From a virus: a stretch of DNA of 64,000 bases. The position numbers and the translations under genes were made by a program. Shown one piece after another: positions 2,700-45,729 of the stretch. Numbering within the stretch: position 1 is the first letter of the stretch; each line of letters starts with the position of its first letter. The notes under the pieces were generated by a model. That model saw only the letters and a list, made by a program, of their open reading frames with translations. It made no database searches and was not told where the DNA came from. Location of the stretch: positions 24,929-88,928 of IMG/VR virus record IMGVR_UViG_3300005663_001084. The stretch is one strand, 5' to 3'.

Positions 2700-3092
2700 T
2701 CAGCGCAACCTGCGCCCGGTGCCGCCACGGTCCAGTTCTCCCCAGGGGAAGTACCAGATCTCGAAGTCGTCCGGGAGGTGCTCCGCCAGCCGCTTCGCGA
2801 CGTGATTTGCCTTCCGGGCGGCCATACGCTGCTCGAAAGCCCACGGCGTGAGGCTGGCCATGCGCTTCGTAACGTCGATGCGCCCGGCAAACTGCGGGGG
2901 TCCTTCCATGCCAACGTCGAGGTGGTAGGTGTCCGGATCGACACCTTCCTGGCTGGCGAAGCTGAACTGACCATCTGACCACTTCCAGGCGTCGAAGTCC
3001 TTGGAGCCGCTGCGGTAGTGGCCGATGTCGGTGTAGTGCTGAGGAGCGGCCTCGCAGAGCAGCTTACGGATGACTTGGCGGGTGGAGTCCAT
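2700..3092 (-). CDS. L-family protein 1; shares its C-terminal domain with 3092..4057
   Basis: N-terminus MDSTRQVIRKLLCEAA. ATGA-coupled to the upstream gene. Confidence 0.7.
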   Translation of the reverse strand: MDSTRQVIRKLLCEAAPQHYTDIGHYRSGSKDFDAWKWSDGQFSFASQEGVDPDTYHLDVGMEGPPQFAGRIDVTKRMASLTPWAFEQRMAARKANHVAKRLAEHLPDDFEIWYFPWGELDRGGTGRRLR

Positions 3093-4057
3093 CAGTACAT
3101 TCTCTGCCCAGGCCTGCCGCGTTGCTGCCCGCTGAAGTACCAGACCGCCTCGACCTCGGGGAACCGGTCGACGAGCCGCTTCACGACGACCTTCGCTTTC
3201 CGTGCAGCGATGGGATTGTCGAGCAGGTCCCAGGCCGTGATGCTGGCCTCGCGCCGCTGAGGGTCGTAGCGTCCGCCGAAGTCAGGAGCGCCCTGAGTGT
3301 CGTAAATCAGGTTGTGGAACTTGTTCGGATCGACGCCTTCATCGCTGGCAACGCGCAGCCGACCTTCGTCCCAGATCCACGCGTCGGTACCTTCGCCGTG
3401 GCCGACGGTGAGGTAGTTGGCGGGGGCTTCGTCCAGGACCGCCTCGGCCCGGACCAGGGATTTGTCCTGGATCTCGTAGCCCTCAACGGCACCGACGTTC
3501 GCATAGTCGAAGCCTTGCAGGACCGCAACTTTCTGTTCGGCGAACCGACCGTGGACGATGTAGTAGGCAGCCTGCCCAACGACCTCGGTGAACAGCGCAG
3601 GCCGGGCTTCCACGGTAGCCAGCTTGGCGTGCGTGTTGTACGCGGCGAGTTCCCCACGGAGTGTGAACGGCTGACCGCGGGCGATGTGCGTGAAGTAATC
3701 GTGGACGGTCCGGAATAGCAGATTGTCCTCGACGCTGAAGACCGGGTGCTCAGAATCTCCGCTGTAGATTTTTAGAACGCCTGTCTCGCGGAAGTCCCGC
3801 TGCATTTCTTCAGACGACTCGTACGGGTCCTCGTCCGTGTACTCGACACGGGACCGGCCCAGGAACCGGCGAAACAGAATTTTGTTGCTGCTGTTGAGCG
3901 CCTCCCAGTGGCGGGCCGCGTCCGGGTCGTAACTGGGAGCCTCCTCGTAGGCGTCAGCGACGAGCCGCGCGTACTCGTTAAAATCTTTAAGTTCGAGCTT
4001 CTCGCGCACGTCCGCTTCGAGAAGCAGCTTCCGGATGGCTGTGCGGGTAGCGTCCAT
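3092..4057 (-). CDS. L-family protein 2 (321 aa)
   Basis: N-terminus MDATRTAIRKLLLEAD. The C-terminal approximately 110 aa are homologous to protein 1 (EGVDP..., AARKA..KRL...WYF). Confidence 0.7.
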   Translation of the reverse strand: MDATRTAIRKLLLEADVREKLELKDFNEYARLVADAYEEAPSYDPDAARHWEALNSSNKILFRRFLGRSRVEYTDEDPYESSEEMQRDFRETGVLKIYSGDSEHPVFSVEDNLLFRTVHDYFTHIARGQPFTLRGELAAYNTHAKLATVEARPALFTEVVGQAAYYIVHGRFAEQKVAVLQGFDYANVGAVEGYEIQDKSLVRAEAVLDEAPANYLTVGHGEGTDAWIWDEGRLRVASDEGVDPNKFHNLIYDTQGAPDFGGRYDPQRREASITAWDLLDNPIAARKAKVVVKRLVDRFPEVEAVWYFSGQQRGRPGQRMY

Positions 4058-4431
4058 CAGATCTTCACGTCCTTCCGCAACGAAATGTGGACACCGGGGT
4101 TGATCTCGTCCAGCTTCAACCTGAGCTTGATGACCTCGACCTGATGCGGCCTGAGATTACGATCCCGCGCGGCGTAGAACGCGGCGTCCTTCGGGCTGTC
4201 AGCAACATACGTACCTGCCCGCAGAACGTCGTAATCACTGCGCTTCGGACGACCGTGATACAGTTCGACGGTCCCATCGAGCAGGATCGGGATGCCGTGG
4301 CGCTCCAGGTACTCGCCTACGGTTTCCTTGCCGAGAACCGGGTGGTCGAGCCAGACGCGGTTCAGACCCCCCTCGTCGTCGGCATCAGCCTCGTAGAGGA
4401 TCTTCCGGATGGCTTGGCGGGTGGCGTCCAT
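4057..4431 (-). CDS. L-family protein 3; possible H-Y-E ADP-ribosyltransferase- or Tpt1-like fold
   Basis: N-terminus MDATRQAIRKILYEAD. Motifs LYHGRP, GTYVADS and VEV. Confidence 0.65.
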   Translation of the reverse strand: MDATRQAIRKILYEADADDEGGLNRVWLDHPVLGKETVGEYLERHGIPILLDGTVELYHGRPKRSDYDVLRAGTYVADSPKDAAFYAARDRNLRPHQVEVIKLRLKLDEINPGVHISLRKDVKI

Positions 4432-4907
4432 CAGCGGCCCTCGATCTTGTCCGCGACGTTCACCATCTGCGAGAGCATGTTCCGGTAGCCGCCGCCGTGT
4501 TCGATGTTGGGGACGTCCGCGCTGTGAACCGCATCGATCTCGGTCTCACCGCGCTGAAGCGCCTCAATCGCCCGGTGGTGACCGTCCAGTATGAACCAGG
4601 CAGCGCGCTTTTCGAGCTTGCTGACCAGGAGCGGACTCTTAGCAGCATGGTAGGATAACTCCCCTTTCTCGATTTCACTGAAGGTTTTATCAATCTTCGG
4701 TTCCCAGGCGTACAGGCTGCGCAGCCGGACGCGCCAGGGTTTTCCCTTGATCGCGGCCTCAGCCAACAGACGCTTCACAAGATCGGGTGGGTAGCCCCGG
4801 TCAGAGCAGCCAGGAGGGGGTGCGGAGATCGAGCCGTCGCCGACCTGTTGGAAGACGCCGCGACCCTCGTTGAGGATGGAGCGAATGGCTTTGCGGGTGG
4901 GGTCCAT
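4431..4907 (-). CDS. L-family protein 4 with ParB/DGQHR-like nuclease domain
   Basis: N-terminus MDPTRKAIRSILNEG. Motif WFILDGHHRAIEALQRG, which is the ParB/Srx-type DGxHR signature. Confidence 0.7.
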   Translation of the reverse strand: MDPTRKAIRSILNEGRGVFQQVGDGSISAPPPGCSDRGYPPDLVKRLLAEAAIKGKPWRVRLRSLYAWEPKIDKTFSEIEKGELSYHAAKSPLLVSKLEKRAAWFILDGHHRAIEALQRGETEIDAVHSADVPNIEHGGGYRNMLSQMVNVADKIEGR

Positions 4908-4976
4908 CAGTCGTTTAGCATCCGCCGGGATTGTCCTCGTGGAATGAACTCGTCAGGTCGGCGTAGTGCATCGCAG

Positions 4977-9075: not shown

Positions 9076-9558
9076 TCACGCAATGGCAGGAAGCGTGACA
9101 GCGCGGAGCATCTCCAGGAGTTTGGGCCAATACTCCTCAACTGGAGATCCATCTTCGATGTACCGCATGCAGTACACGAAATCCTCTTCGGAGCGTTTGG
9201 CATGCAACTCGACCCAACCCTTCGACTCCCAGTACTTTAGAACCTCAATACGCTGCAAATACACCAACTCTGTGTGCAGCGCTTCCAACCGGCTTTGAGT
9301 GAAGTGGTGGCTATCCACAGTACTCAGCAGGCAGTTCCGGTCAACGACTTCCAGAATGGTCTCCAGGCTGAGCGTACCGACCAGGGCAGGTAGCTTCTTC
9401 AGCTTGTTCATAATCTCCAAGACCTGCTCATCGCGTACCGAGAAATCCCAGTCTTCCAGGATTCCCTGCACTGCGGTTCCCAGACTAGCTGCGGCCGTAA
9501 GCCGGTAGGCCTCCTCACAACGGGGCATCAGAATCCTGTCGTCATCTGGTCTGCTCAT
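9076..9558 (-). CDS. hypothetical protein; paralog of 2131..2622
   Basis: The ATG sits 6 nt after the GATAAT of a class-1 promoter. Shares the YWPKLLEML block with its paralog. Confidence 0.6.
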   Translation of the reverse strand: MSRPDDDRILMPRCEEAYRLTAAASLGTAVQGILEDWDFSVRDEQVLEIMNKLKKLPALVGTLSLETILEVVDRNCLLSTVDSHHFTQSRLEALHTELVYLQRIEVLKYWESKGWVELHAKRSEEDFVYCMRYIEDGSPVEEYWPKLLEMLRAVTLPAIA

Positions 9559-9605
9559 AACAGTATTATCGGATCGGGGCGGCTATTTAGCCAAGGAAAA
9601 TTATC
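9559..9605 (-). promoter_or_regulatory. class-1 conserved leaderless promoter
   Basis: The reverse complement reads aattttccTTGGCTAAATAGCCgcCCcGATCCGATAATactgttATG. Confidence 0.65.
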
Positions 9606-14145: not shown

Positions 14146-14364
14146 TCAGGCCACGTGGCCTGTCGGTTTCTTGATGGACTCCTCCAGGACGGCCTTCACC
14201 TCGATGCGCCAGCGCCCGTGCCAACCGCACTTGTCACAATCCAGAGTCAGATCCTCGTCGCGACCCATGTGCCCGCAGTCTACGCTGAACTTCGAGCCGC
14301 AGCCCGGACAGGTGGCCCTCACGTGCATGTGGCTAATTTCGCAGTAGTCGATCTTGACGTCCAT
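14146..14364 (-). CDS. zinc-ribbon protein (72 aa)
   Basis: CPGCGSK...CDKCGWHG. Its ATG abuts a class-1 promoter. Confidence 0.5.
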   Translation of the reverse strand: MDVKIDYCEISHMHVRATCPGCGSKFSVDCGHMGRDEDLTLDCDKCGWHGRWRIEVKAVLEESIKKPTGHVA

Positions 14365-14418
14365 AACAGTGTTATCGGATCGGGACGGCTATTTGGTCAG
14401 ATAATTTTGCGGGTCAGA
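14365..14418 (-). promoter_or_regulatory. class-1 conserved leaderless promoter
   Basis: The reverse complement reads cgcaaaattatCTGACCAAATAGCCgTCCcgATCCGATAACactgttATG. Confidence 0.65.
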
Positions 14419-14437: not shown

Positions 14438-14773
14438 TTAGTTGCCCCTCGTACGCGGCTGCCGCGTCTCGGGGTCCATCTCGTACGTCATCACTTCGTT
14501 GCAGAAAGTAATCGTCCCGCCGCCAGACAGTTTGCCGTCCCACACCTTGCCCCACGTCTCGTCTTCCCGCGAGCCAGTGATTGTGACACGGAACCCTACG
14601 TGTTCGCCTTCAGCGAGAACCCATGATGCCCCCGTCCAGTCTACACCTTCCGCCGGTTCCGCAACCCGCTGTCCCAGCGGATAACACAGCACCGTCTTGT
14701 TGCTAGGCATGGGAGTCTCGTCTTCAGGAGCCTCAGTGAGGAGGTGTCGGAGAGCTTTGCGGGTCTGATCCAT
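14438..14773 (-). CDS. L-family protein 5 (111 aa)
   Basis: Internal start MDQTRKALRHLLTEAPE of ORF 14438..15253. Confidence 0.65.
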   Translation of the reverse strand: MDQTRKALRHLLTEAPEDETPMPSNKTVLCYPLGQRVAEPAEGVDWTGASWVLAEGEHVGFRVTITGSREDETWGKVWDGKLSGGGTITFCNEVMTYEMDPETRQPRTRGN

Positions 14774-14836
14774 GGGCAGCAGTATACCTGGATATTCGAG
14801 GATTGCGAAATTGAAACGGGCAAAAATTTTGTGTGG
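14774..14836 (-). promoter_or_regulatory. class-2 upstream motif with a TATACT leaderless -10
   Basis: The reverse complement reads CACACAAAATTTTTGCCCGTTTCAATTTCGCAatcctcgaatatccaggTATACTgctgcccATG. Confidence 0.55.
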
Positions 14837-15375: not shown

Positions 15376-15867
15376 GGGAAACCTCTTCGCGCGTCGCATG
15401 AGAGCCTCAGGCGTCATCCGGGGGTGCATCAGGTCGGTGACATCGACCTTGATGGCCTCCCGCTGATCCCAGACGTCGAGGTAGACCGTGTCGCCCAGCG
15501 TCAGGCCGGGCAGCAGGACGCGCAGGCGATTCAGAACCTCGGAGTCGAGCGTGGGCACCGTAATCCCGTCGTCGTAGCCGCGAATCCAGCCGTGTTCTAG
15601 CGCTTCGGCCTCAACCCGTTGGCGGTCGTGGGGATCGTCGGAAACCGTGCTCACCTCGTCCAGCAACTCCTCGATGCCCGGGTCGCCAGGGTACATCTCA
15701 GGAAAGCGCCTCAAGGCCTCAGCGGCGTGCGTCGTCCAGCCACTCCCAGTCCAGCCACTCCCAATGTTGATGTACTCGCCGTCGGGCAGGAGCCACCAGC
15801 GGCCCAGCCATGTGGACTCGCGGGCCTCGGTGAGGATGGAACGGATGGCGTGACGGGTGGAATCCAT
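15355..15867 (-). CDS. L-family protein 6; WxLPDG-domain paralog of protein 7
   Basis: N-terminus MDSTRHAIRSILTEAR. Motifs WWLLPDGEYINIGSGW and HGWIRGYDDG. Confidence 0.7.
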   Translation of the reverse strand: MDSTRHAIRSILTEARESTWLGRWWLLPDGEYINIGSGWTGSGWTTHAAEALRRFPEMYPGDPGIEELLDEVSTVSDDPHDRQRVEAEALEHGWIRGYDDGITVPTLDSEVLNRLRVLLPGLTLGDTVYLDVWDQREAIKVDVTDLMHPRMTPEALMRRAKRFPESDFLG

Positions 15868-16391
15868 TAGGCCTGCCGCGTGACTTGGGCAGGATGCTTT
15901 GCCAGCAGAACCGTCTCCACATCGGCGTACATGTACCCACTGCCATATTCGAGCAGGATTTTGCCCTTCGTGGCACCCCGGTCGAGCAGGAACGTCTGTA
16001 TACGCCTCAGCGACTCAGCATCGAACTCCAGCATGTCGAAGCCGCCGGTATCGGTTACACGAATCCAGCCATCCCGGATCGCCACCTGCTCAGGGTTGTT
16101 CATGTAGCGCGCGACGAAGTCAGGCTTCTTGGCGTACTCCCGAGCAATATCGGCGTGGACGTCGTACCAGGGGCCGTCGAAGGTCTCGTCCATGATGTCC
16201 TGCTCAGAGGCCGACAGGAACCCCCAGTCGATCTCAGCAGCGACGGCCAGAGCAGCCGCCTCGTGATTCCAGCCACTGTCTTCAACAGTCACAACCTCGC
16301 CATCAGGCAGAATCCAGTAATCAGCACGGAGCACGTCGGCAGCATCGGACTCAGTGAGCAGCTTTCGGATGGCGTGACGGGTCTGATCCAT
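15867..16391 (-). CDS. L-family protein 7; WxLPDG-domain paralog of protein 6
   Basis: N-terminus MDQTRHAIRKLLTESD. Motifs YWILPDGEVVTVEDSGW and DGWIRVTDTGG. Confidence 0.7.
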   Translation of the reverse strand: MDQTRHAIRKLLTESDAADVLRADYWILPDGEVVTVEDSGWNHEAAALAVAAEIDWGFLSASEQDIMDETFDGPWYDVHADIAREYAKKPDFVARYMNNPEQVAIRDGWIRVTDTGGFDMLEFDAESLRRIQTFLLDRGATKGKILLEYGSGYMYADVETVLLAKHPAQVTRQA

Positions 16392-16460
16392 GGCGAAAAC
16401 ATCATATCAGGGAATCCGGGGATCTCGAAATTGAAACGGCCCAAAATTTTGTGTGTTCGG
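16392..16460 (-). promoter_or_regulatory. class-2 upstream motif
   Basis: The reverse complement reads CGAACACACAAAATTTTGGGCCGTTTCAATTTCGAGatccccggattccctGATATGatgttttcgccATG. Confidence 0.5.
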
Positions 16461-16461: not shown

Positions 16462-16992
16462 TCAGGCCTCATCCCGTTGGATAGCCTCGTCAAGCGCCTT
16501 TACCCAGCCCGACCACTTGTTGTGCCTGCGCTGCGTTGTTTCGAGAGACGTCTCGGCACGCCGGATCTGTCTGGTGTCGGCCTCCTTACGGGCCTTGTTA
16601 AGCCACTCTTGAGCGTTGCGAAGGCGGGTCTCAGTCTGCACCTGATATTTGTAGCAGTAGCCGCGCAGGCTCGCCAGAGGGGAGGTGTGCAGTTCCATAC
16701 CGCAGTGCGGACAGAAGCGGGTGTCTCGGTTTTGTCCGCAACAGAAACGACGTCCGGCCATGGGGAGAGGACCGATCATACCACGTGCCCAGGTACTGAT
16801 CTCGGCCTCCGTCGCCGAACCGCAGCGGGGGCGCGCGAGCAAGCGAACAGACAAGGCCTCGCGCGGGTGCTCGCCGTCAAGCAGGTCGCGGCCGACTTTT
16901 ATGTCAGATGAGGATAAGACATTCTTCGCCCCGGTAGTCAGGTCGTCGAAGCCCGGCAAGTCTCGCACAGGTGTGTCCAGCGGGACGTCCAT
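16462..16992 (-). CDS. zinc-ribbon protein (176 aa)
   Basis: Internal start MDVPLDTPV lies exactly 6 nt after the GATAAT of a class-1 promoter. Cysteines CPHCGMEL and CCGQNRDTRFC. Confidence 0.55.
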   Translation of the reverse strand: MDVPLDTPVRDLPGFDDLTTGAKNVLSSSDIKVGRDLLDGEHPREALSVRLLARPRCGSATEAEISTWARGMIGPLPMAGRRFCCGQNRDTRFCPHCGMELHTSPLASLRGYCYKYQVQTETRLRNAQEWLNKARKEADTRQIRRAETSLETTQRRHNKWSGWVKALDEAIQRDEA

Positions 16993-17040
16993 AACAGTAT
17001 TATCGGCCTGCGAGGGCAATTTGGGCAGGTGAAAATCAGG
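16993..17040 (-). promoter_or_regulatory. class-1 leaderless promoter variant
   Basis: The reverse complement reads gattttcaCCTGCCCAAATtGCCcTCgcaggCCGATAATactgttATG. Confidence 0.55.
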
Positions 17041-17761
17041 AAACCAGGATCTTAATGCCCAGCCCGGCCTCCAGCTTCTCAACGGTAGAGCGACGAACAG
17101 CCTTCTTGCTCTGATAGAATATGTGATAGATCGTGTCTTCCGGCACGCCACAAGTCCGCGCAGTCTCGGCCAGATTTCGATCACGCAGAACTTCTCGGAC
17201 GACCTCAACTGGAACGTTGCGGCCTGCATCCGGACGTGGCATGTCCTCGGAGGCGTGACGTTTTCCATGACAGTCGGAGCAGAGCCAAAGCACATCCAGG
17301 CGACGGCTGTAGTCCTCGTGGTGAGCCTCCAGCCGCCCATCGGCACCACACTCCGAACAGCAGTCCGGTTTGACCATACGGCCACGCAGAACAGCGCTCT
17401 CAACCGCACTGCGCGCCAGATAGCGGTCACGGTGCTTGGCATACGAACGGTTCCTGTACTCGCGTTGCTGCTTGTTGATGTGCTCTCGATTATTCGTGGC
17501 GTAGGCCTTCGCAGAAGAATTACGACAGTCCCGGCACTGATTCGCGAGACCGTCGGCCTTCTTTCGATTTCGATGGTGGGCAGAGATGGGTTGGGTCTGG
17601 CGGCACTTCGAGCAACGCTTTACAGCCACGTCCTTACAGTGCGGACACAAAGTCAGGCCCTCGTCTATCGCATCAGCGAGACGTATGATCCTTGGCTCAG
17701 CCATGCAGCTTGCGATCACGTGGTAGTGCTCGTCTTGGCCAGCGAAGTAGGAAATAAGCAT
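17036..17761 (-). CDS. HNH endonuclease with N-terminal Cys-rich region and C-terminal HTH
   Basis: HNH signature CSECGADGRLEAHHEDYSRRLDVLWLCSDCHGKRH. C-terminal segment TARTCGVPEDTIYHIF. Confidence 0.65.
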   Translation of the reverse strand: MLISYFAGQDEHYHVIASCMAEPRIIRLADAIDEGLTLCPHCKDVAVKRCSKCRQTQPISAHHRNRKKADGLANQCRDCRNSSAKAYATNNREHINKQQREYRNRSYAKHRDRYLARSAVESAVLRGRMVKPDCCSECGADGRLEAHHEDYSRRLDVLWLCSDCHGKRHASEDMPRPDAGRNVPVEVVREVLRDRNLAETARTCGVPEDTIYHIFYQSKKAVRRSTVEKLEAGLGIKILVS

Positions 17762-18060
17762 AATGTATCCTCAAAACGTATCTTCTCCAACGTACCAGGA
17801 AATTAGGCGATTTCAAAGAGTAAAGGTGAAAAATTTCTGTGTGTTCGCCTGGGCCACCCCCACCCACCCCCTTTCTATCCCACAGGGGACCCCTGATATC
17901 CAAGGGATAGAAAGGACCCCCCTCCCAGGGGCCGGTGTACCGGCCTGGGGCGTCACTGGGCTGCCCACCGGCCCGCAGAGCGGGCTTGTGGGTCACAGGT
18001 GGCTGGGAGTGAGCGACAACAGGTGTTGAGGTGCACAGGTGAGCGGCAACGATGTTCCAC

Positions 18061-18108
18061 GGGGAACAAAGCGGCCCCTGATTGCGAGACATGGCAATCA
18101 GGGGCCGC
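18061..18108 (-). terminator. possible intrinsic terminator hairpin
   Basis: Perfect 15-bp stem GCGGCCCCTGATTGC, 8-nt loop, then GCAATCAGGGGCCGC. A TTTGTT tract follows on the minus strand. Confidence 0.45.
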
Positions 18109-18369
18109 TGGTGTATTGAGGCCGGAAGGCCGAGGTCAGACCACAGCCCTCCGGCTGGACAGGACCTGCTCGTCTCTGGTGGACGGGTGCAGGAGCTTGG
18201 GCTCACTCTACCTCTGGCTGATGGGCGTGTCAACCCTAGCGTTGGGCTGGCAGTCAGGCTGGCTGACCGAATAGAACCCCTCCGTTGATAGCGCTTCGCT
18301 AGGCCTCTCTTATAGAGAGAGTCTAGCGAGAGGCTGTACCCAGATAAAGATCATCCAGCGCTCCTTAGC

Positions 18370-18398
18370 TCTTGACAGACAGAGCCACAGAGTATAAG
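18370..18398 (+). promoter_or_regulatory. sigma70-like promoter for the HNH gene
   Basis: TCTTGACA-N15/17-TATAAG. A GGAGAG ribosome-binding site lies 7 nt before ATG 18427. Confidence 0.45.
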
Positions 18399-18426
18399 CT
18401 CCCTGAACCAGTTACGGAGAGCCAGA

Positions 18427-18954
18427 ATGGAAGAGCAGTGGAGGGTTATCCCCAGCGTCCCGTACTACGAGATCAGCGACCATGGTAGGGTTAGACGACT
18501 GGTGCCAGCTATTGGTACCTGGGTTGGCAGGGTCAAGACACCCTACGTCACAGCCAACGGCTACCTGAAGATCTCGTTGTCCGTGGACAAGAAGAGGTTC
18601 CAGCGCTTCGTCCACAGGTTGGTGGCAGAGGCGTTCATCGGTCCGATCCCAGACCTGCACCACGTCCATCACCTGGACCACGACAAGCAGAACAACCGGG
18701 CCACGAACCTGGAATGCCTGTCCCGCCGCCAGAACCAGCAGCTTACCCACACCACGCCGGTCAAGCGCAGCGCCATGGGCGGCATCCCTGAGATGCTGGT
18801 CCAGGCCTGGGCCAGGGGCTGGATGTTATGCGACGTGGCCGCTCAGCTTGAAGTGGACGAGGCACAGCTTAGCCGCTGGCTGCTACGGGAGGAGCTACCC
18901 AACGGTCGGCAGGCTGAGATCAGCCAGCGCCTGTGGTCGCTCGTGATAGGCTAG
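18427..18954 (+). CDS. HNH homing endonuclease (NUMOD4 plus HNH_3 type)
   Basis: Motifs PYYEISDHGRVRRL and HHVHHLDHDKQNNRATNLECLSRRQN. Confidence 0.75.
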   Translation: MEEQWRVIPSVPYYEISDHGRVRRLVPAIGTWVGRVKTPYVTANGYLKISLSVDKKRFQRFVHRLVAEAFIGPIPDLHHVHHLDHDKQNNRATNLECLSRRQNQQLTHTTPVKRSAMGGIPEMLVQAWARGWMLCDVAAQLEVDEAQLSRWLLREELPNGRQAEISQRLWSLVIG

Positions 18955-19176
18955 GCTACGAGGAGGACCAGCGCTGTGACAAGACCCACGCCAACCACGC
19001 CCAGGAATGCTAGGAGGATCAGGAGCCAGAACCCCAGGTACGCCATCATCGCCGCGAAGATGATCTTCTCCAGGAAGCGCAGCATCAGGCCACTCCCGTT
19101 AAGAAGCAGTAGATCCCCACGGCCACGATGAGGACGATCAGGAACAGGGTGAGGTCGTCGAGTTGGGGCTCGTGCA

Positions 19177-20166
19177 TCAGGCCACCGCCTCGACCAGACG
19201 GCCAGGGCCGGTGGGCTCAGTTACGAGGTCGCCGCCGAACAGCGCGTGGTACCGCGTCGTCGCCTCGACCCAGGCCTCAGCCACGTGGCAGTTGGGAATG
19301 CGCTTGCCCTTCACGCCGCTGAGGTAGCGGGCCAGGGCCTTCAGGTCGAAGCAGGCCGGGGTCGGCCGCACGGTCAGTTGTTCGTACTCGCCATGGTAGC
19401 CGTCGCTGAGAACGATCAGCTTGAACTCGAACTCCAGCCTCCACATATCGGTATCATCTGACACGGTCATATTGCCATGGCTGGTCTCTATGACACCCCC
19501 GGCCAGTGGCCCCTCCCACGTTATGGTGTAGCCAGTCGAGGTGTAGCCCTCACGCGGCTCCACATTCATGCGTGAGAGGCCGTAGCGTTCCTGTGACGCC
19601 ACGATCTCCACGTCACCATAGGCTCGCTTGGTCCGCTGGCTGAGGAAGTTCTCCTGAAGCGCAGCGGGCGGGTTGAGCAGTACGTCGATGATCCGGCGGG
19701 CCAGTGGCCGCAAGCCGTCACGATACTGATCCACCCGGTCGATGCTGGCGTAGTCGACCTCGTAGTTGTTGAGCGTATCCATGTAGCCGATTTGCCCGCG
19801 ACCGTCCGGACGGTCGCTGATCTCGTTGTTCACGTTCCAGGTCTTCCCGGCATCGCGCCCCTCGGCCCGGGTTGTCTCCCACATGTCGTCCATGCGCCGC
19901 TGGCAGAAGATCTGGACGAACTTCTCCAGGTGGTTCTCGTCGCTCGCCAGCATGGCCAGGGTCTCCGGCCGGTGGCCCGAGATCCACTCCAGCAGGACCA
20001 TCACGCCGTATTGGTAGTAATCATCCTGGCACAGGGACGGGTCGCGCGTGATCCTGGCGAAGCGGGCCGCCACGCGGCCGATGATGATATCGCTGCGCGA
20101 CAGCACATCTGAGAGGACAGCGTCGGATGACACCGGCGCGTCCGGCAACGGGAATTTAGGTGGCAT
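19177..20166 (-). CDS. hypothetical protein (329 aa)
   Basis: Long ORF on its own between two non-coding regions. No confident motif. Confidence 0.5.
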   Translation of the reverse strand: MPPKFPLPDAPVSSDAVLSDVLSRSDIIIGRVAARFARITRDPSLCQDDYYQYGVMVLLEWISGHRPETLAMLASDENHLEKFVQIFCQRRMDDMWETTRAEGRDAGKTWNVNNEISDRPDGRGQIGYMDTLNNYEVDYASIDRVDQYRDGLRPLARRIIDVLLNPPAALQENFLSQRTKRAYGDVEIVASQERYGLSRMNVEPREGYTSTGYTITWEGPLAGGVIETSHGNMTVSDDTDMWRLEFEFKLIVLSDGYHGEYEQLTVRPTPACFDLKALARYLSGVKGKRIPNCHVAEAWVEATTRYHALFGGDLVTEPTGPGRLVEAVA

Positions 20167-20919
20167 GGGGTGGGGCTCTCCTGCACTCGGGTCCTATCCG
20201 CCAGTCACCATACCGGGACGCGCCACGCGCGTCAAGGACTTTTCGTGAGATTTGCTACATTTTCTTGTGGGAGTTTATCAACAGGTCGTCAACAACGCCT
20301 CCTCCGCCCGGCCGCCAGCGTAGTCAGAGCCAATACCTGTGTAGCATACGTCCAGTCTCACCGGGGTGGAGCGGAGGAGGGGCCAACGAAGTGTTCAGAA
20401 ACTCGCGGAAATCTCGCGTGCCAGCGTGACCCCTCGCACCCCCGACACTTATCTTCTGTCTATGTGTAGGCTATCACTACACTTAGTTGTGTAACACGTT
20501 ACATTGCTACATATAGCATGCTACATCCTTCTCACCTGCCCGATCCCCAGGTCGCTGCACCGTGACCACCCGACATCTGTGTCCGCCGGTGGCGGCTGGT
20601 GACTCTGTAACCCGTTGGCCTCATTGACCTCACTCATTGTTGCACTTTTGTTGCAGTCTTATTTCAATGGGCTGCCGGTAGCCGCTGTCCAAGTTGAGCC
20701 GCTGTCTGGACTGGGGGCGCTGGGCTGTCCACATCTTGGACTGCCAGCTTATCCACATACTGTCAACATGACCATGTCGTTATGGCGCAGTGACACACCT
20801 AACGCATCCCAATCCAGTTCAATTTGGAGCCTATTATTTACATTGAGCCGTTGTTGTTGCAGTTATTTACAGTTACTGCGTTGAGGGCACCGGCCGCACG
20901 GCGGCCCGGCCCATGGGAG

Positions 20920-20970
20920 GGTGGGAGGATTTACATGACCAAAAAGCCGTCCGAATCCGATAATACCTGT
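20920..20970 (+). promoter_or_regulatory. class-1 conserved leaderless promoter
   Basis: ttaCATGACCAAAAAGCCgTCCgaATCCGATAATAcctgtATG. It lies inside track ORF 20824..21969. Confidence 0.6.
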
Positions 20971-21969
20971 ATGACCACCGCAGCGACCACCGACGTAGAC
21001 ACGCTCTTCAACCGGTTCGCCAAGATGGCCTCGGACACGTTCAAGCCCACCGGCCTGTACCCGGACAGTGCAGTGCTGTCGATGCTTCAGCGGGCTGAGG
21101 TGTTCTGCTTCCCCTCCATGCTCACCGCTGAAGAGAGGCCCGAAAGCGCCACGATCCTGAAGACTCGCCTGCCCCATAAGGCCTGTGCTATGGTCTCCCC
21201 TCGGGCAGTCACAGTGTTCGGTGGTCAAACCTTACACCACGGTCGCCAAGGCATCGATATCGATACAATCGAGAACCTGGACTCAGCGTGGGGTGCTAGG
21301 CTCAAGCGAATCGCTGACAGTACGCAAACAGATCTCAACACGAGTCTCGACAGCGTAAAGCTCTGGACAGGGTTCGACTCTGTCGTCATGTACTACCCGG
21401 GCGAGAAGACGAGTGGCGACCTGTTGGCCTACGGGTGGGCGTTGCTGGTTGAGGACGACACCAGTGGTGGTGCAACGAGGATAATCATGCCGCCAAAAGT
21501 GGTGATCATGCGTACCGGCAGGAAGCCCGAGCTACTGGTGAGCGACAGGCAGGACCACGGGATGTCTCATCAGGACGTTAAACTCGTGATAGAGAGCATG
21601 GAGCGCCACGCCATGATCGGTATGGGAGAGGTGGCTGTAGCCTCCGCTCCAATCAGTCGTGTCGTCCTGCGGGAACGTCCTGTCAAGAAGCCCAAGCGTC
21701 CTAGCCGGTACATCGGCCGGGTGGGCGAGAAGCCGAGGACCATCCTCATCGATCCCAGTAACCGTGAGTCCATTCAATACGTTGGTTTGGGTGGGCATCG
21801 TGGTCCGCTGCTCGAAGGCCACAAGCGCCGTGGCCACCACCGGACTTACCGGTCTGAGCGCTATAAGAAGATGCGGGGCAAAACCGCCTGGGTAAAGCCG
21901 ACGTGGATCGGACCCCGAAACTGGACGGACCATGGACGCGTCTACATCGTACAGGTAGTAGGAGGATGA
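20971..21969 (+). CDS. hypothetical protein (332 aa)
   Basis: Start moved to MTTAATTDV because a leaderless promoter ends 6 nt upstream. The first 49 codons of the track ORF are the promoter read through. Confidence 0.55.
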   Translation: MTTAATTDVDTLFNRFAKMASDTFKPTGLYPDSAVLSMLQRAEVFCFPSMLTAEERPESATILKTRLPHKACAMVSPRAVTVFGGQTLHHGRQGIDIDTIENLDSAWGARLKRIADSTQTDLNTSLDSVKLWTGFDSVVMYYPGEKTSGDLLAYGWALLVEDDTSGGATRIIMPPKVVIMRTGRKPELLVSDRQDHGMSHQDVKLVIESMERHAMIGMGEVAVASAPISRVVLRERPVKKPKRPSRYIGRVGEKPRTILIDPSNRESIQYVGLGGHRGPLLEGHKRRGHHRTYRSERYKKMRGKTAWVKPTWIGPRNWTDHGRVYIVQVVGG

Positions 21970-22292: not shown

Positions 22293-22709
22293 CTACCGGC
22301 CAGTAACTACGTAGCGGCTCTTGAGTTCGTCCCCGTCAACACTGGGATGGCTGTAGTAGACGCCTCCCTCGGAGGTGTACAGATCCACGTCGAGGGTACT
22401 GGTGAACTGGTCTACCGTAGGATCTAGGATGTGACTGCCGACGATCACCCATGTGTGGTCCCACTCCTCAAGCTCCTCGAATCCGGGCCGGTCTCCTGTG
22501 ACTGTGATGAACTGGCCGCCTTGGATCTTTGCCTGGATTCCTTTGGCGCGGAGAAGTTTGACGAGTCCCTCGGCGGTCTCGCTGCAATCCCCGAACTGGG
22601 CAACGTCGCACACGAACTGCTTACGGGCCTGCTTGGCAAGATCAATGGTGGCGTCCGTGATCGACTCAGTGAGCATCCTGCGTATGACTGTTCTGGTGGA
22701 GTCCATCAC
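22293..22709 (-). CDS. L-family protein 8
   Basis: N-terminus MMDSTRTVIRRMLTESI. Confidence 0.65.
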   Translation of the reverse strand: MMDSTRTVIRRMLTESITDATIDLAKQARKQFVCDVAQFGDCSETAEGLVKLLRAKGIQAKIQGGQFITVTGDRPGFEELEEWDHTWVIVGSHILDPTVDQFTSTLDVDLYTSEGGVYYSHPSVDGDELKSRYVVTGR

Positions 22710-23098
22710 ATGGCTCTCAACTTCTCAATGAACTCTACGACTTCCAGGTCTGCGAATTCCCTGTCCTGAAGCCACTCGTACGTGTCGCAGGGGACCTCGT
22801 AAGCCATAATGGACCGCGCACCCGACATCATTCTGGCAATCAGCCTGTGGTGTCCGTCCAGGAGTTTGCCGCACGCGATCCAGATCGGCGGAATGTCTTT
22901 GGCCTGCCGGAGCGCCGCGATCTTCTCCGGGTCCTGGTGTAGCTCGTAGGTCAGTATCTGCCTTGGGTCCTCTTCAACCAATTCGGCGGTCAGGTCGATC
23001 CCGGCTGCGCGGGCTTCGTCAACGACCTCCCGTTCCCAGTCCTTGAGAGGGTCGGCCTCGGTGAGCATCCTGCGTATGGCTGTTCTGGTTGGGTCCAC
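22706..23098 (-). CDS. L-family protein 9 with ParB/DGQHR-like domain
   Basis: GTG start. N-terminus (V)DPTRTAIRRMLTEAD. Motif KLLDGHHRLIARMMSG. Confidence 0.65.
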   Translation of the reverse strand: MDPTRTAIRRMLTEADPLKDWEREVVDEARAAGIDLTAELVEEDPRQILTYELHQDPEKIAALRQAKDIPPIWIACGKLLDGHHRLIARMMSGARSIMAYEVPCDTYEWLQDREFADLEVVEFIEKLRAM

Positions 23099-23145
23099 GG
23101 CAGGCAGTATACCCGGTGGGCCTCAGCATGGCGAGTAGAGCCTCT
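23099..23145 (-). promoter_or_regulatory. TATACT leaderless promoter
   Basis: The reverse complement reads TTGACTcacc...ccaccgggTATACTgcctgccGTG. Compare the 14774 copy, gTATACTgctgcccATG. Confidence 0.45.
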
Positions 23146-28037: not shown

Positions 28038-28333
28038 CCGGATACCCCGCCGTCTTCGGCCTCTCTAGCCTCTCTAGCCTCTCTAGCCTCTCTGGCCCGT
28101 ATGGCTGCGAGGGCTCTGTCGCGGTCTACGTCGTTGGCGTGGACATGCCAATGCTGCGACTTACGCGCTGCGGCCAACTCCTGCCGCAGCCCTTCGGCGT
28201 ACTCATCCAGCGCGGCGGTGATGACTCTCTCAGTACAGCCACTATGGAGACCTCCAAAACGTCGGCAACAACTCTCCAAGAGTGTCATTACAGTCTCGTC
28301 CACGATCTTGTCCCGCAGTTCGTTGGTCATCAC
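28034..28333 (-). CDS. NELRDK-family protein (member A) with AREAREAREARE repeat
   Basis: Blocks MMTNELRDKIV and AALDEYAEGLRQELAAAR. The C-terminal (ARE)x4 is encoded by a 9-bp tandem repeat. Confidence 0.5.
   Translation of the reverse strand: MMTNELRDKIVDETVMTLLESCCRRFGGLHSGCTERVITAALDEYAEGLRQELAAARKSQHWHVHANDVDRDRALAAIRAREAREAREAREAEDGGVSG
28063..28098. repeat. 9-bp tandem repeat (CCTCTCTAG) x4 inside a CDS
   Basis: gcctctctagcctctctagcctctctagcctctctggcc. Confidence 0.8.
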
Positions 28334-31626: not shown

Positions 31627-31665
31627 ATTATCGGATCGGCAGGGCAGTTTGCCCAGAATTTCTTG
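31627..31665 (-). promoter_or_regulatory. class-1 leaderless promoter, minus-strand member of a divergent pair
   Basis: The reverse complement reads aaattCTGGGCAAActGCCcTgCCgATCCGATAATatggtcATG. Confidence 0.6.
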
Positions 31666-31698
31666 CCCAAATAGCCCTCTGAATCCGATAATACAGGC
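31650..31698 (+). promoter_or_regulatory. class-1 leaderless promoter, plus-strand member of a divergent pair
   Basis: gaatttcTTGCCCAAATAGCCcTCtgaATCCGATAATAcaggcATG. Confidence 0.65.
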
Positions 31699-31953
31699 AT
31701 GAAGACCAAGACGGCCCGGCCCATGTATCTGATCGTGCCCGACAACGCGCCGCCCTACGTACTCAAAGGCAGGATGACTGTGGCCATCAAGGACAAGCTC
31801 GGTGGCTCGCGCAACAAGCTGCTCAAGATTGAAGACGGTGTCGCGTCGCAGCTATCTATGACCGGACACTTCACCGAGAAGGACCCGTGGTCCTGGGTCG
31901 AGGTGCCACGGCAGACGTTCGCGACGCCGGAGAAGGAGGCTCCCAGTGACTGA
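31699..31953 (+). CDS. hypothetical protein
   Basis: Leaderless start 6 nt after the -10. Confidence 0.55.
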   Translation: MKTKTARPMYLIVPDNAPPYVLKGRMTVAIKDKLGGSRNKLLKIEDGVASQLSMTGHFTEKDPWSWVEVPRQTFATPEKEAPSD

Positions 31954-34774: not shown

Positions 34775-34815
34775 ATTTTCTCCTAGCCAAATAGCCTTCC
34801 CAATCCGATAGTACT
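34775..34815 (+). promoter_or_regulatory. class-1 conserved promoter
   Basis: ttttctCCTAGCCAAATAGCCtTCCcaATCCGATAGTActc. It sits ahead of the NAD salvage operon. Confidence 0.6.
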
Positions 34816-34856
34816 CATAGCGGGTTTAACCGATACCGCACGCATGGAGACACCAG

Positions 34857-35786
34857 ATGAAAGAAGTCAGCCCCCCGGCGGCAGATGTCGGCGTCCTAGT
34901 CGGCAGGTTCCAAGTCCACAAACTCCACGAAGCACACCTGGAACTGATCAGGCACGTGGTCAAGCACCACGACCGCGTGATGATCTTCCTGGGCATGTCG
35001 CCGTGCCGCGTCACGAGGAACAACCCCCTCGACTTCGACGCCCGCAAAGCGATGATCCAGGACGCCTTCCCGGACGTAAGTGTCTACTACGTCAGGGACT
35101 GCCGACCCGATGACCTGTGGTCTAAGCGCCTCGACAACATGATCTATGAGCACATCAAGCCGGGCGCGAAGGTCCTGCTGTACGGTGGGCGCGACGCGTT
35201 CATCAAGCACTACGAAGGCAAGATCCCCACGCGCGAGTTGGAGCAGGAGGTCTTCATCTCGGGCACCGCCGTGCGCAACACCATCGCCAACACCGTGCCC
35301 AAGACGACCGACTTCCGCGCCGGGGTCATCTGGGCCTCCCAGAATCAGTACCCGCGTGCCATCCCCACCGTCGACGTGGCCGTCTGGGACGAGACCGGCG
35401 AGAAGCTCCTACTGGCCCGCAAGCCCGACGAGGATCTCTACCGCTTCATCGGCGGCTTTGCCACTGGCCCAACGTACGAGTCCGACGCGCGGCGCGAGGT
35501 CGACGAGGAAGCGCACATCGCCATCACCGATCCAGTCTACGTGGGCTCGCATCAGGTCGACGACTGGCGCTACCGCAGCGAGGCCGACAAGATCGTCACG
35601 CTCCTATTCGAGGCCAAGCGGCTCAGCGGCAACCCACGTCCCGACGATGACATCGCTGAACTCAAGTGGTTTGATTTCGCAACACTCCGCGACGAAATGG
35701 TCGTCCCGGAGCACCGTCCACTCCTCAAGATGCTTCAATGCAAGAGGGAGACACACCATGAAGACGAACATCGTACTGGCGACTGA
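34857..35786 (+). CDS. nadM: bifunctional NMN adenylyltransferase/Nudix hydrolase (NadM-Nudix type)
   Basis: N-terminal cytidylyltransferase-fold block VLVGRFQVHKLHEAHLELI. Nudix box GGFATGPTYESDARREVDEEAHI. The 3' end overlaps the nadV start. Confidence 0.8.
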   Translation: MKEVSPPAADVGVLVGRFQVHKLHEAHLELIRHVVKHHDRVMIFLGMSPCRVTRNNPLDFDARKAMIQDAFPDVSVYYVRDCRPDDLWSKRLDNMIYEHIKPGAKVLLYGGRDAFIKHYEGKIPTRELEQEVFISGTAVRNTIANTVPKTTDFRAGVIWASQNQYPRAIPTVDVAVWDETGEKLLLARKPDEDLYRFIGGFATGPTYESDARREVDEEAHIAITDPVYVGSHQVDDWRYRSEADKIVTLLFEAKRLSGNPRPDDDIAELKWFDFATLRDEMVVPEHRPLLKMLQCKRETHHEDEHRTGD

Positions 35787-41095: not shown

Positions 41096-41718
41096 CAGTA
41101 GTAGCTCGGGTTGTAGGGCCGGTCCTCGCCGTACTGCTCGACCAGGGCACGCAGGCTGTCGTCCAAATGCTCGACGGCCTCGCGATACTTGCTGTTGTTG
41201 AGTGGGTAGTACAGGGTGCCTGTCCGCTCGTAGACTACGAGAATCCCCAACGTCGCCTCGGCCAGCTTGATGACCACGTCGTAGCAGGCGTCAGCCGCCG
41301 CGCGGTACAGCGGGTCCTCCACCTGGAGCGAGCCCTTCATCCTGGTGGCGCGCTTGCGTAGCCGTGTCGCGGCCTTCTGCATCGACTCCAACGACTCGTC
41401 CTTGTACTTGCTGACCTCCAGGTGCTCGCGGTACACGTCGCGTACATACTCTTCGTTGACGTGGCGGATGATGCCCATCTCTTCGTTGATGTGGCCGACC
41501 TCGATGCGGAGCGGGCTGGCCTTCGCATAGACCGCAGAGCCCAGCGAGCCCAGGATGCAGTGGACCGCCTCGGCGATGCGCTGGAGGCCAATCTCGTACT
41601 CGGTGTATGCCTGGAACCAGCCGCCTTCTGGCAGGCCGCCGTAGATCGTGCCAAGGGCGCAGTGGTCAGGCGCAGCTTCGGTCAGCATCTGGCGTATGAC
41701 GTGGCGTGTCTGGTCCAT
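41095..41718 (-). CDS. L-family protein 12
   Basis: Internal start MDQTRHVIRQMLTEAA of ORF 41095..41817. Confidence 0.65.
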   Translation of the reverse strand: MDQTRHVIRQMLTEAAPDHCALGTIYGGLPEGGWFQAYTEYEIGLQRIAEAVHCILGSLGSAVYAKASPLRIEVGHINEEMGIIRHVNEEYVRDVYREHLEVSKYKDESLESMQKAATRLRKRATRMKGSLQVEDPLYRAAADACYDVVIKLAEATLGILVVYERTGTLYYPLNNSKYREAVEHLDDSLRALVEQYGEDRPYNPSYY

Positions 41719-41722
41719 CGCG

Positions 41723-43399: not shown

Positions 43400-43403
43400 T
43401 GCG

Positions 43404-45230: not shown

Positions 45231-45688
45231 CAGCCCCAGGCTTCCTTGTCGTGCTGTACCAGCGCGCGGGTCATGTCCTGGGTGAGCGGCTCGACGTTGA
45301 TGGTGTCTTCCGACGGGACCGCAGCCATCCGCTTGAGCCACTGCCCTTCCGCCCCGGCCTGCGAAAGCGGGTCTGCCGTGTCGACCTCCCACTCCTCGCC
45401 GCTCGGGCTGAACGTGACAATGGAGATGTCGCCGCTCCCCATGGCCTGATTCAGATCCCAGTCCATCTTCGAGGCCCAGCGTATGGCGTCGAACTTGTTA
45501 TCGAACGCGAAGATTTCACCCTGGCCGTAGCGCTCGCCAGTCCCAGACATGGCCCAGTTGGAGGGCTGCATCGGGACGAGCCCACGCTTCTGGATATCTG
45601 AGACCCGGTCAGTGGGGGTGACGTGGTAGTACTCGACGCCCTGGGCCTCGGTGAGTATCCGTCTGAGGGCTCTGCGGGTGGGGTCCAT
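45230..45688 (-). CDS. L-family protein 15; possible ART-like fold
   Basis: Internal start MDPTRRALRRILTEAQ. Motifs YYHVTPTDR, GEIFAFD and EEWEVD. Confidence 0.6.
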   Translation of the reverse strand: MDPTRRALRRILTEAQGVEYYHVTPTDRVSDIQKRGLVPMQPSNWAMSGTGERYGQGEIFAFDNKFDAIRWASKMDWDLNQAMGSGDISIVTFSPSGEEWEVDTADPLSQAGAEGQWLKRMAAVPSEDTINVEPLTQDMTRALVQHDKEAWG

Positions 45689-45727: not shown

Positions 45728-45729
45728 TT

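Follow-up and report, generated by a model that had tools for sequence, protein, structure and literature searches.

The stretch analysed here, which we call the window, comprises 64,000 nucleotides of the IMG/VR virus record IMGVR_UViG_3300005663_001084 (positions 24,929 to 88,928 of that record), and our subject is a 665-bp non-coding gap within it (17762-18426) that appears to contain, on the minus (-) strand, the gene for a small RNA (sRNA) directed against the leader of the neighbouring operon, set among several cis-acting elements. The gap lies between two divergently oriented endonuclease genes, an endonuclease VII/HNH-like homing-endonuclease gene of 241 amino acids (aa; 17036-17761(-), phrog_2340, E 4e-26) and a 175-aa HNH_3 + NUMOD4 homing-endonuclease gene (18427-18954(+), Pfam E 4e-18 and 2e-6), the latter inserted antisense to the surrounding operon, whose first gene (19177-20166(-)) encodes a 329-aa protein. 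An earlier note, made from the sequence alone, had taken the gap to be non-coding, and this reading holds: identical public contigs carry no gene calls inside the 665 bp, open reading frames (ORFs) that cross it gave zero Pfam or PHROG matches, and the longest of these has a GC content at third codon positions (GC3) of 0.57, against roughly 0.6-0.85 for most neighbouring ORFs. The note had also seen no tRNA-like structure, in agreement with ARAGORN, which reports 0 tRNA or tmRNA genes in the whole 64 kb. The Rfam/Infernal scan that it had suggested returned 0 covariance-model matches at gathering score across the window (C4, group I/II introns, 6S and tmRNA included), and hence no known RNA family for the region; between 16800 and 19300 there were four chance matches (E 1.8-8.7) to unrelated eukaryotic or riboswitch models. 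Folding, likewise suggested there, gave structure stronger than that of shuffled sequence, with z scores of -5.0 (+) and -5.8 (-) for 17850-18360 and of -6.8 for 18055-18205(-), and a blastn-short comparison with the whole window revealed no paralogue of the region.

The 329-aa neighbour gene is LCGC14_0163710 of the Loki's Castle marine sediment metagenome, and the longest recorded contig that carries it measures 224,854 bp. Contigs from three marine-sediment samples of PRJNA259156 are identical across the 665-bp region, with 3 mismatches nearby in one contig, and therefore provide no comparative signal. Homologues of the 329-aa protein led to ten related metagenome contigs (L011, L012, L013, L014, L036, L037 and L040-L043), in which this protein has from 80% down to 49% identity with that of the window. 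In 10/10 of these relatives a stretch of 570-1050 bp without called genes (the module) comes after the 329-aa gene and its one to three tiny ORFs, and the only ORF read inside a relative's module is endonuclease VII-like (it lies in L042, and its start can be aligned with L014). Over 18103-18235 the HNH-less L012 is up to 87% identical to the window in nucleotide sequence, and relatives that have no endonuclease gene keep the module despite 52-55% protein identity in the neighbouring gene. The HNH gene is common only to the window and L011, and the 241-aa gene occurs in none of the ten; because most relatives keep the module without these genes, we regard the framing endonuclease genes as insertions and the module as the conserved part. 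Insertions and deletions of 2-60 nt between relatives are not multiples of three and no ORF is kept, which rules out a conserved small ORF. The comparative alignment that the earlier note had proposed thus finds conservation, the module being kept in ten relatives. Read along the minus strand, the order of its elements, established from alignments, a motif map and direct reading, is a hairpin that we call HP0, the sRNA promoter, the sRNA, a parS-like palindrome, a zone of ACAGGTG boxes, a GCCCGC hairpin, the TTCTATCC boxes and a promoter-like 'class-2' motif. A group I intron was rejected as an explanation of the region, there being no Rfam intron match, the flanking ORFs being complete and on the other strand, and the module being kept in HNH-less relatives.

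Searches of further collections were negative. Neither blastn of 17000-19000 nor tblastn of the 329-aa protein matched any of 50,697 phage records (zero matches), and tblastn with the NAMPT gene of the window found only distant large phages (<= 48% identity) and no close relative. Scans of IMG/VR with the 329-aa protein or its alignment found no relative, and DNA-pattern scans of the same database gave chance matches or none for the hairpin and the inverted-repeat box, 21 matches, all chance, for GCAGGTCCTGTCCAG, and 2 matches, both unrelated, for the GCCCGC hairpin. Scans of JGI metagenomes by protein pattern and by DNA pattern, and a scan of GTDB genomes, returned nothing.

The best sigma-70-type match in 16500-19500 lies within the module, on the minus strand, and consists of TTGACA (18233-18228), a 17-nt spacer and TAGAGT (18210-18205), agreeing with 10/12 consensus positions as a consensus match only. 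The arrangement of TTGAC/T, a spacer of 17-18 nt and TAnnnT is kept in L011, L012, L036, L013, L041, L042 and L043, with a spacer that varies in sequence; the -10 element of L014 is off-consensus (TGTGAT). A sigma-54 promoter in the CCTGGCAC motif was considered and rejected, as the -12 TTGC element is missing. From the sigma-70-type promoter and the terminator downstream of it we infer transcription of an sRNA of ~135 nt, which would run from about 18198 to 18064(-). Its predicted parts are a 5' arm, CUCCUGCAC (18187-18195(-)), complementary to a putative Shine-Dalgarno region; an inner hairpin; an invariant single-stranded 12-mer, GGUCCUGUCCAG (18166-18155(-)); a hairpin 2 (18155-18121(-)); and a terminator hairpin with a perfect stem of 16 bp and a loop of 8 nt (18070-18085/18094-18109(-)), followed by UUGUU(CC). 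The perfect stem had been recognised in the earlier note, at a length of 15 bp where we count 16 (18070-18109), and its label of terminator hairpin suits the predicted terminator of the sRNA, with minus-strand UUGUU after the stem.

Conservation of this candidate gene extends over ~90 nt between promoter and terminator. Five homologues folded singly adopt the same order of hairpin 1, single-stranded GGUCCUGUCCA, hairpin 2 and terminator, with an extra hairpin inserted between hairpin 2 and the terminator in three relatives; separate folding was used since MAFFT/RNAalifold on the whole sRNAs misaligned L013 and a second MAFFT alignment was out of structural register. The outer stem of hairpin 1 is paired in 7/7 sequences, with one C-G to U-A compensatory change and two wobble changes, and the sequence of its inner stem differs in almost every relative with pairing kept. 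Terminator stems, too, differ yet pair (CCCCUGAUUGC/GCAAUCAGGGG in the window, CCCCGGGCUG/CAGCCCGGGG in L011 and L012, CCCCGGGCCG/CGGCCCGGGG in L013 and GGCCCAGG/CCUGGGCC in L036), and a terminator hairpin with a T tract of the UUUGUU type stands in the same place in L011, L012, L013, L036 and L043, the T tract of L041 being poor. L040 has lost the sRNA body, and L014 and L042 have a short version. As read from the homologue sequences, G-U pairs work only in the minus-strand transcript; this, together with the promoter, the T tract and the antisense relation to the operon leader, orients the sRNA on the minus strand. We consider it quite probable that a real sRNA gene is present at 18198-18064(-), and the suggestion that the region could encode a small RNA gains support from this candidate minus-strand gene, with its conserved promoter, terminator and predicted target. 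The predicted sRNA is previously undescribed, being absent from Rfam and from the phage collections searched.

The predicted target is the leader region of the 329-aa operon (20167-20235(-)), which comprises a promoter, TTGACG-17-TATGGT (20235-20207), and a 5' untranslated region (5'UTR) ahead of the start codon at 20166. The operon ends just upstream of the sRNA gene, and the sRNA is encoded in trans, on the same strand as its target and ~2 kb away, at the 3' end of the operon. In the window the leader reads GGCGGAUAGGACC-CGA-GUGCAGGAG-N11-AUG, with a two-part motif at 20178-20199; it is kept in 10/10 relatives that include the operon start, with a gap between the halves of 2-5 nt (3 nt in the window). 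The reverse complement of the leader is CUCCUGCAC-NNN-GGUCCUAUCC and the sRNA is CUCCUGCAC-(hairpin of 18-26 nt)-GCAGGUCCUGUCC; since the former matches both arms of the latter, the sRNA can be described as a split antisense copy of the leader. The corresponding motif, GGA[CT]AGGA[CT]-N1-32-G[TC][GA]CAGGA, occurs exactly twice in the window, at 20199(-) in the sense of the leader and at 18157(+) antisense to the sRNA, with a mean of 0.005 and never 2 or more occurrences in 1000 shuffled windows. The pair is also present, on opposite strands and at those sites only, in L011, L012, L036, L013 and L041, and the single-stranded seed of L041 reads GGUCCUAUCC, by which the single G-U of the duplex becomes an A-U pair.

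Cofolding gave the same picture in 6/6 sRNA-leader pairs, i.e. 9-10 bp over the GGAG region and at least 10 bp over the mRNA 5' end, with the inner hairpin protruding. The net gain was -16.6 to -22.9 kcal/mol, compared with -4 to -9 for shuffled leaders, and 0/200 shuffles per pair were as good. A duplex scan with the seed returned the 5'UTR of the 329-aa gene as one of its best non-self matches, and a 12-mer complement search for seed targets found no enrichment. A reading of the region as a plus-strand copy of promoter and leader was rejected, as it lacks a -10 hexamer and its GGAG is 25 nt away from the closest ATG.

These observations are consistent with a mechanism in which host-type RNA polymerase would start at TTGACA-17-TAGAGT and stop at the 16-bp hairpin and UUGUU (18109-18064). 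The 5' arm of the sRNA, CUCCUGCAC, would pair with GUGCAGGAG, the putative Shine-Dalgarno region, and single-stranded GGUCCUGUCC with GGAUAGGACC, right where the mRNA begins, the inner hairpin protruding between the two arms to give a three-way junction. Bound in this way, the sRNA would block translation initiation of the first operon gene, that of the 329-aa protein, and would perhaps destabilise the mRNA; translational repression is the effect that we consider most likely. The protein has no family match, and a profile search of the PDB gave nothing relevant. Its AlphaFold model is poor (pLDDT 49.5), and Foldseek returned weak matches for it, almost all to sigma factors (best ECF sigma L, E 0.065; also sigma H, E, 32, 28 and WhiG). 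As no more than a hint, this points to a divergent, sigma-like protein of the phage.

The palindrome that follows the sRNA, TGTTCCACGGGGAACA (18053-18068, both strands), agrees with 13/15 specified positions of TGTTNCACGTGAAACA (2 mismatches), which is the chromosomal ParB-binding consensus listed for Bacillus, Caulobacter, Hyphomonas and Burkholderia (PMC7022226 Table 1). Exact sites are present, on one strand or the other, in L040, L041 and L043 (TGTTTCACGTGAAACA), in L013 (TGTTCCACGTGAAACA) and in L012 (TGTTTCACGTGGAACA), and the orthologous site of L011 and L036 has one mismatch. There is one site per locus, always within the module, and no other in two 13-kb loci. Where the site follows the sRNA, its first bases are the T tract of the terminator, and in L040 and L041 it follows the box-zone hairpin; a hairpin precedes parS in every relative with a clear site, and may shield it from incoming transcription. 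The sole ParB-like feature in the window is a sub-threshold ParB_N match (21.3 bits vs a cut-off of 26.3) in a 662-aa protein (43404-45392(-)), in which no parS-binding helix-turn-helix domain was detected. We infer ParB binding from the sites themselves, and the module probably serves, or once served, as a ParB loading site.

The next intergenic region (20167-20934), ahead of the operon promoter, carries further signals of host type, with a perfect DnaA box, TTATCCACA, at 20749-20757, near-matches at 20727 and 20275, and AT-rich stretches at 20440-20520 and 20800-20880. Three or four tandem DnaA boxes occupy the orthologous region of L011 (1085-1420, boxes at 1085-1126 and 1412) and L013 (690-1090, boxes at 690-743); perfect DnaA boxes (TTATCCACA) come right after parS in L040 and L041, and L011 has genes for DnaB-like and helicase proteins a few kb downstream. 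In its DnaA boxes the layout of 20167-20934 resembles that of oriC, and if there is an origin nearby this region is a better candidate than 17762-18426. Because the DnaA boxes lie in the next intergenic region, an origin inside 17762-18426 is unlikely, and a role in genome maintenance is possible. No AT-rich unwinding element was found within 17850-18360, which is GC-rich throughout (GC 0.57-0.61), and the cumulative GC skew of the window has no inflection at the gap, its minimum being near 31 kb.

Beyond the palindrome lies the zone of ACAGGTG boxes (17994-18050, both strands), with heptamers at 17995, 18019 and 18035 and a duplicated GTGAGCGRCAAC (GTGAGCGACAAC/GTGAGCGGCAAC at 18009-18020 and 18039-18050). 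The three boxes described in the earlier note are present, at start-to-start distances of 24 and 16 bp instead of the 17-20 bp given there. The heptamer is not enriched in the window as a whole (12 observed vs 8.6 expected), but a triple within so short a distance is uncommon: triples of k-mers within 60 bp were observed for 14 k-mers at 6 loci, compared with a mean of 0.39 in shuffles. L011 keeps 2 of the boxes, L036 keeps 1 and L013 keeps 0, and the zone is deleted in L012; the heptamers not being conserved in relatives, they are unlikely to be iterons. The idea of a replication origin or pac-like element built on these repeats is accordingly not supported, the boxes not being conserved, no AT-rich stretch being present and the skew showing no inflection, and an iteron-type origin was rejected as a candidate (direct repeats not kept, no AT-rich element, endonucleases as flanking genes). 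The more general sense of the earlier note, that DNA-level cis elements lie in the region, was reasonable. What is conserved of the zone among the relatives is GCTCACC.GTGCACC and a hairpin, GTGGATCAC...GTGACCCAC. The adjoining block GTGACCCAC-AAGCCCGC-NNN-GCGGGCCGGTGG (17961-17996(-)), with the GCCCGC/GCGGGC hairpin and CGGTGG, is nearly invariant in the window, L011, L036, L013, L014, L042 and L043, and being without covariation it gives no information on structure.

The TTCTATCC boxes form an inverted repeat at 17870-17915, which had been noticed as CTATCCC...GGGATAG and has arms longer than stated, namely 12 nt with 100% complementarity (17870-17881, CCTTTCTATCCC; 17904-17915, GGGATAGAAAGG). 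One compensatory change, C-G to G-C, is found in L013. These boxes are unique to the module, there being none elsewhere in the 64-kb window or in the 13-kb loci, and four more distant relatives have two direct copies and one inverted copy; they look like a protein-binding array upstream of the class-2 promoter. There is a resemblance, too, between the boxes and the antisense of GGAUAGGA, an element of the leader, and between the right arm, GGAUAGAAAGG, and the leader itself (17870-17915 vs 20178-20199), which may reflect extra RNA pairing sites, a shared DNA operator or common descent. A G-quadruplex in the G-rich tract was rejected, as the tract is not conserved in detail. The class-2 motif belongs, with a 5'UTR carrying a Shine-Dalgarno-like GAGGAT, to the 241-aa gene (17762-17847(-)), and the partial copy recorded in the earlier note is present at 17792-17843. 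The 52-nt motif has three copies (14784-14835, 16404-16455 and 17792-17843, the last the weakest at 67%), each just upstream of a minus-strand gene, and it follows the module in L011, L012, L013 and L043. In L011 it stands upstream of an ordinary 111-aa gene, which, to judge from its promoter-like sequence, it would drive there as it would the 241-aa gene here.

At the other end of the module, upstream of the sRNA promoter, stands HP0 (18290-18337(-)), the 'complex palindrome' of the earlier note, which had correctly placed it before the HNH promoter (palindrome at 18297-18334, promoter TTGACA at 18372-18377). RNAalifold on 11 sequences found that 5/6 pairs of its upper stem hold in at least 10/11, and that at two positions U-A is replaced by C-G as a compensatory change, in 4 and 3 sequences. 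HP0 is not followed by a U tract, and may be either a U-less terminator for the operon or a stabiliser of a 5' end. Elsewhere in the window, four perfect tandem copies of the 9-bp unit GCCTCTCTA (28058-28093) resemble the HP0 core GCCTCTC (18303-18309).

Several points weigh against the account of an antisense sRNA within this module. The comparison covers only 7 sRNA homologues, and 151/500 shuffles reach the observed covariation score of the hairpin 1 outer stem, the single stem that is aligned in register; the covariation is therefore not significant, and structural support comes from the homologues folding alike, by which the sRNA structure is well supported, not proven. The U tract, UUGUU, is short, and the parS palindrome that overlaps it determines part of its sequence; GGAG and AUG are 11 nt apart, a rather long distance for a Shine-Dalgarno sequence. 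With a short query of 19 nt the duplex scan gave the leader a value of -29.7, among several near-equal matches of -33.3 to -29.6, and with a long query the leader was not among the eight best loci listed, in a GC-rich background reaching to about -62; the control shuffles of the cofolding kept mononucleotide content only. Both pairing arms hardly vary, and show wobble-compatible changes only and no compensatory change in trans, which leaves room for a shared DNA-level site. L040, without the sRNA body, has a leader identical to that of L041, and the short variant of L014 and L042 pairs no better than chance (29/200 shuffles as good); since these three keep the leader without a full sRNA, conservation of the leader is not due to the sRNA alone. 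As to partition, one of the two parS mismatches of the window lies in the CACGTG core, so that this copy is possibly weakened or dead, and no canonical ParA or ParB is encoded among the 66 window ORFs. On balance we lean towards the whole account, its target included, i.e. an antisense sRNA within a composite module of cis elements.

Of the other explanations, the one to which we give most weight, whilst doubting it, is that the module is a DNA-level maintenance locus, either an origin-proximal centromere or an origin, in which host ParB acts at parS, the small transcript is a primer or copy-number control RNA of the sort known from RNA-based origins of plasmids and prophages, and an initiator or partition protein binds at the TTCTATCC boxes and at the hairpin of the box zone. 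This overlaps partly with the sRNA reading, and would make sense of the exact single-site parS in five relatives, of boxes unique to the module (two direct and one inverted in four relatives), and of DnaA boxes both after parS (L040, L041) and in the next intergenic region, with DnaB-like/helicase genes in L011; origins that express a non-coding RNA beside parABS also have a precedent in mycobacteriophage prophages (PMC7157519). However, 17850-18360 has no AT-rich unwinding element, the ACAGGTG repeats are not kept, the GC skew has no inflection at the gap, the parS of the window is degenerate, and no canonical ParA, ParB or Rep gene is found in the window. The strong terminator, moreover, ends the RNA with no run into a potential R-loop region, and the two-part antisense relation to the leader is left unexplained. 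Another explanation has a phage regulator acting on GGAYAGRA-type half-sites in the leader, the sRNA region and the TTCTATCC boxes, in which case the shared motif would be a DNA operator, its leader half-site would overlap the start site, and the 'sRNA gene' would be a regulated spacer. We regard this as unlikely, since the spacing of the halves, 2-5 nt in the leader, is 18-26 nt in the sRNA, where the extra nucleotides form a hairpin whose sequence varies with pairing kept; since the copy stands between a conserved promoter and terminator oriented so as to give an antisense transcript; and since only the minus-strand transcript tolerates G-U pairs. There is also a natural reason at the RNA level for the copy to exist, in that the second half-site is the putative Shine-Dalgarno region. 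The operator nevertheless has on its side the GGATAG-type half-sites, which are found in the leader, recur as GGACAGGA in the sRNA gene and stand two or three times in the inverted repeat, together with near-invariant arms that lack trans covariation and a leader in L040 that has no sRNA.

The hairpins might also be mere terminators or insulators, the 16-bp hairpin ending the upstream minus-strand operon with no separate RNA gene. The hairpin and TTTGTT do lie downstream of the 329-aa/30-aa/44-aa operon on the same strand, HP0 is conserved right after that operon, and 5 terminator-like sites were found against 1.4 expected; but a conserved promoter lies between HP0 and the 16-bp hairpin, ~90 conserved nt including the invariant single-stranded 12-mer lie between promoter and terminator, and the antisense relation to the operon leader goes unaccounted for, which makes this explanation improbable in our view. 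We give hardly any credence to the region being non-functional debris, in the form of decayed genes or scars of endonuclease insertion, with repeats arising by chance in GC-rich DNA: endonuclease-less relatives keep the module at 52-55% neighbour-protein identity, the hairpins show compensatory changes, and folding is strong (z -5 to -6.8) where no ORF is conserved. Such debris would be in keeping with the two homing-endonuclease genes that flank the gap, with the third type of insertion inside the module in L042 and L014, and with the absence of a DNA match in phage collections.

The HNH promoter and leader occupy 18361-18426(+), with TTGACA at 18372-18377 and GGAGAG at 18416-18421, and the whole cassette (18361-18954) has 72% identity with L011 and is absent from L012, L013, L014, L036, L037 and L040-L043; relatives without the HNH gene have a conserved AATTAG...AATTAGGGTA in its place. 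The 241-aa gene has no counterpart in L011, where the DNA match ends at 17798, and it is absent too where L012 and L013 extend past the module. At the edges of the gap, ~90 bp to the left and ~65 bp to the right are consistent with promoters and leaders of inserted cassettes. Upstream of HP0, all HNH-less relatives carry the motif CCTGGC..AATTAG..CTAATTAGGGTA..CTCTTATCAT (L012 1876-1950, L036 1594-1680, L013 2631-2700, L040 6230-6290, L041 3360-3420, L042 2630-2690, L043 2080-2140), with TATAAT in L040 and L041; it may be a homing site or a promoter. Three different endonuclease insertions have been found in the same module (window 17036-17761 and 18361-18954; L011 2821-3348; L042 about 2934-3230; L014 about 3050-3130). 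In other assemblies, contigs of the same population are interrupted within the 241-aa gene (window positions 16584, 17170, 17277 and 17784), which suggests a presence/absence polymorphism of this gene.

Elsewhere the window has genes for NAMPT, a Nudix hydrolase and an HD phosphohydrolase, together with several HNH genes and numerous small unassigned ORFs. Such a content suits a phage-like element of very large size, although neither a capsid nor a terminase gene was seen in the 64 kb. NAMPT (phrog_448, E 3.5e-160), the Nudix-like protein and the HD phosphohydrolase (35146-37140, 55076-56566 and 56821-57687) make up a set of NAD-salvage type such as is found in other very large phages. A 'class-1' promoter motif, TTGCCC-N18-GATAAT, followed by ATG after ~6 nt, stands at 15 or more gene starts in the window (e.g. 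20928-20972, 31650-31711, 34776-34820, 45729-45790, 53783-53827, 9555-9599(-) and 14361-14405(-)), and this spacing implies, at the level of sequence, leaderless mRNAs for many genes of the element. A conserved N-terminus, MDxTRxAIRxxLTE, is shared by 13 to 15 minus-strand genes, a large paralogous family without assigned function (3049-3095, 4014-4060, 4388-4434, 4864-4910, 14730-14776, 15824-15870, 16348-16394, 22663-22709, 23055-23101, 41675-41721, 43356-43402, 45187-45233, 45645-45691 and 63623-63663).

Regulatory RNAs from uncultured large phages are very few, and for the sRNA predicted here we can name a promoter, a terminator and a structure, as well as a target that is specific and can be tested; absent as it is from Rfam and the phage collections searched, the sRNA would define a new family. 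The exact parS of relatives and the nearby clusters of DnaA boxes suggest that the element engages chromosome-maintenance proteins of its host. A broader proposition, that large phage-like replicons keep host-type parS and DnaA-box clusters around a sigma-like operon silenced by a two-armed antisense RNA, is one we put forward only tentatively and with considerable doubt. Were it true, the phage would borrow host ParB and DnaA to replicate, position or maintain its genome, or would titrate both, the sRNA would time the switch, and the locus would be a preferred landing pad for at least three homing endonucleases. The locus in any case illustrates how homing endonucleases pile up around conserved non-coding sequence, and for annotation it teaches that long 'empty' gaps between mobile nuclease genes are not to be dismissed as insertion scars.

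Each part of the locus has likenesses among known systems. Free-standing homing-endonuclease genes of the T4 seg/mob type lie in intergenic regions of large phages, and the HNH_3/NUMOD4 and endonuclease VII-like genes resemble them in having their own promoters, a patchy presence and an insertion point in conserved sequence; the difference is that the endonuclease genes here are a frame around a non-coding module. The parS of this module is an element of known kind in an unusual place: relatives share the exact 16-bp consensus of chromosomal parS, whereas the site lies on a phage-like element, not near a bacterial oriC, and in single copy, and our literature search did not find host-type parS on large phage genomes. 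Extrachromosomal prophages of mycobacteriophages have RNA-based origins beside parABS, with autonomous replication shown experimentally; these prophages encode ParA and ParB themselves, and their parS repeats are specific to the phage (Wetzel et al. 2020; PMC7157519). The present locus is like these origins in being a non-coding phage region with an RNA, here a predicted one, next to partition sites, and differs in that the sRNA has an obvious antisense target.

As an RNA, the predicted transcript shares features with trans-acting base-pairing sRNAs of the DicF type, which end in a Rho-independent terminator. The likeness consists in a 5' stem-loop, a conserved single-stranded seed, a terminator hairpin with U tail and a predicted site over a putative ribosome-binding region; unlike DicF-type sRNAs, it would pair through two arms (9-10 bp and 10 bp) around a protruding hairpin and not through a single seed. 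Short phage RNAs complementary to operon leaders, namely the CI RNA of satellite phage P4, P22 sar and lambda OOP, shut operons down, P4 CI acting by premature transcription termination and being derived from the leader itself, and sar and OOP being cis-encoded and overlapping their targets on the opposite strand. The sRNA here differs from sar and OOP in being trans-encoded on the same strand as its target, the sequence comparison with them being the Rfam scan only. The nearest case is c4 of P1/P7, a small phage RNA that controls a neighbouring operon in trans by base pairing, through two short separate complementary stretches, one of them over the ribosome-binding site, and that is processed from the very transcript that it controls. 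C4 antisense RNA regulates Ant expression (PMC8201110, citing Citron & Schuster 1990). In contrast to c4, the sRNA here has no Rfam C4 match, is flanked by a promoter and a terminator that belong to it alone, is encoded at the end of the operon opposite the leader, and comes with no indication of an immunity or antirepressor function. By analogy, its mode of action would be closest to that of phage antisense regulators and of terminator-ended base-pairing sRNAs.

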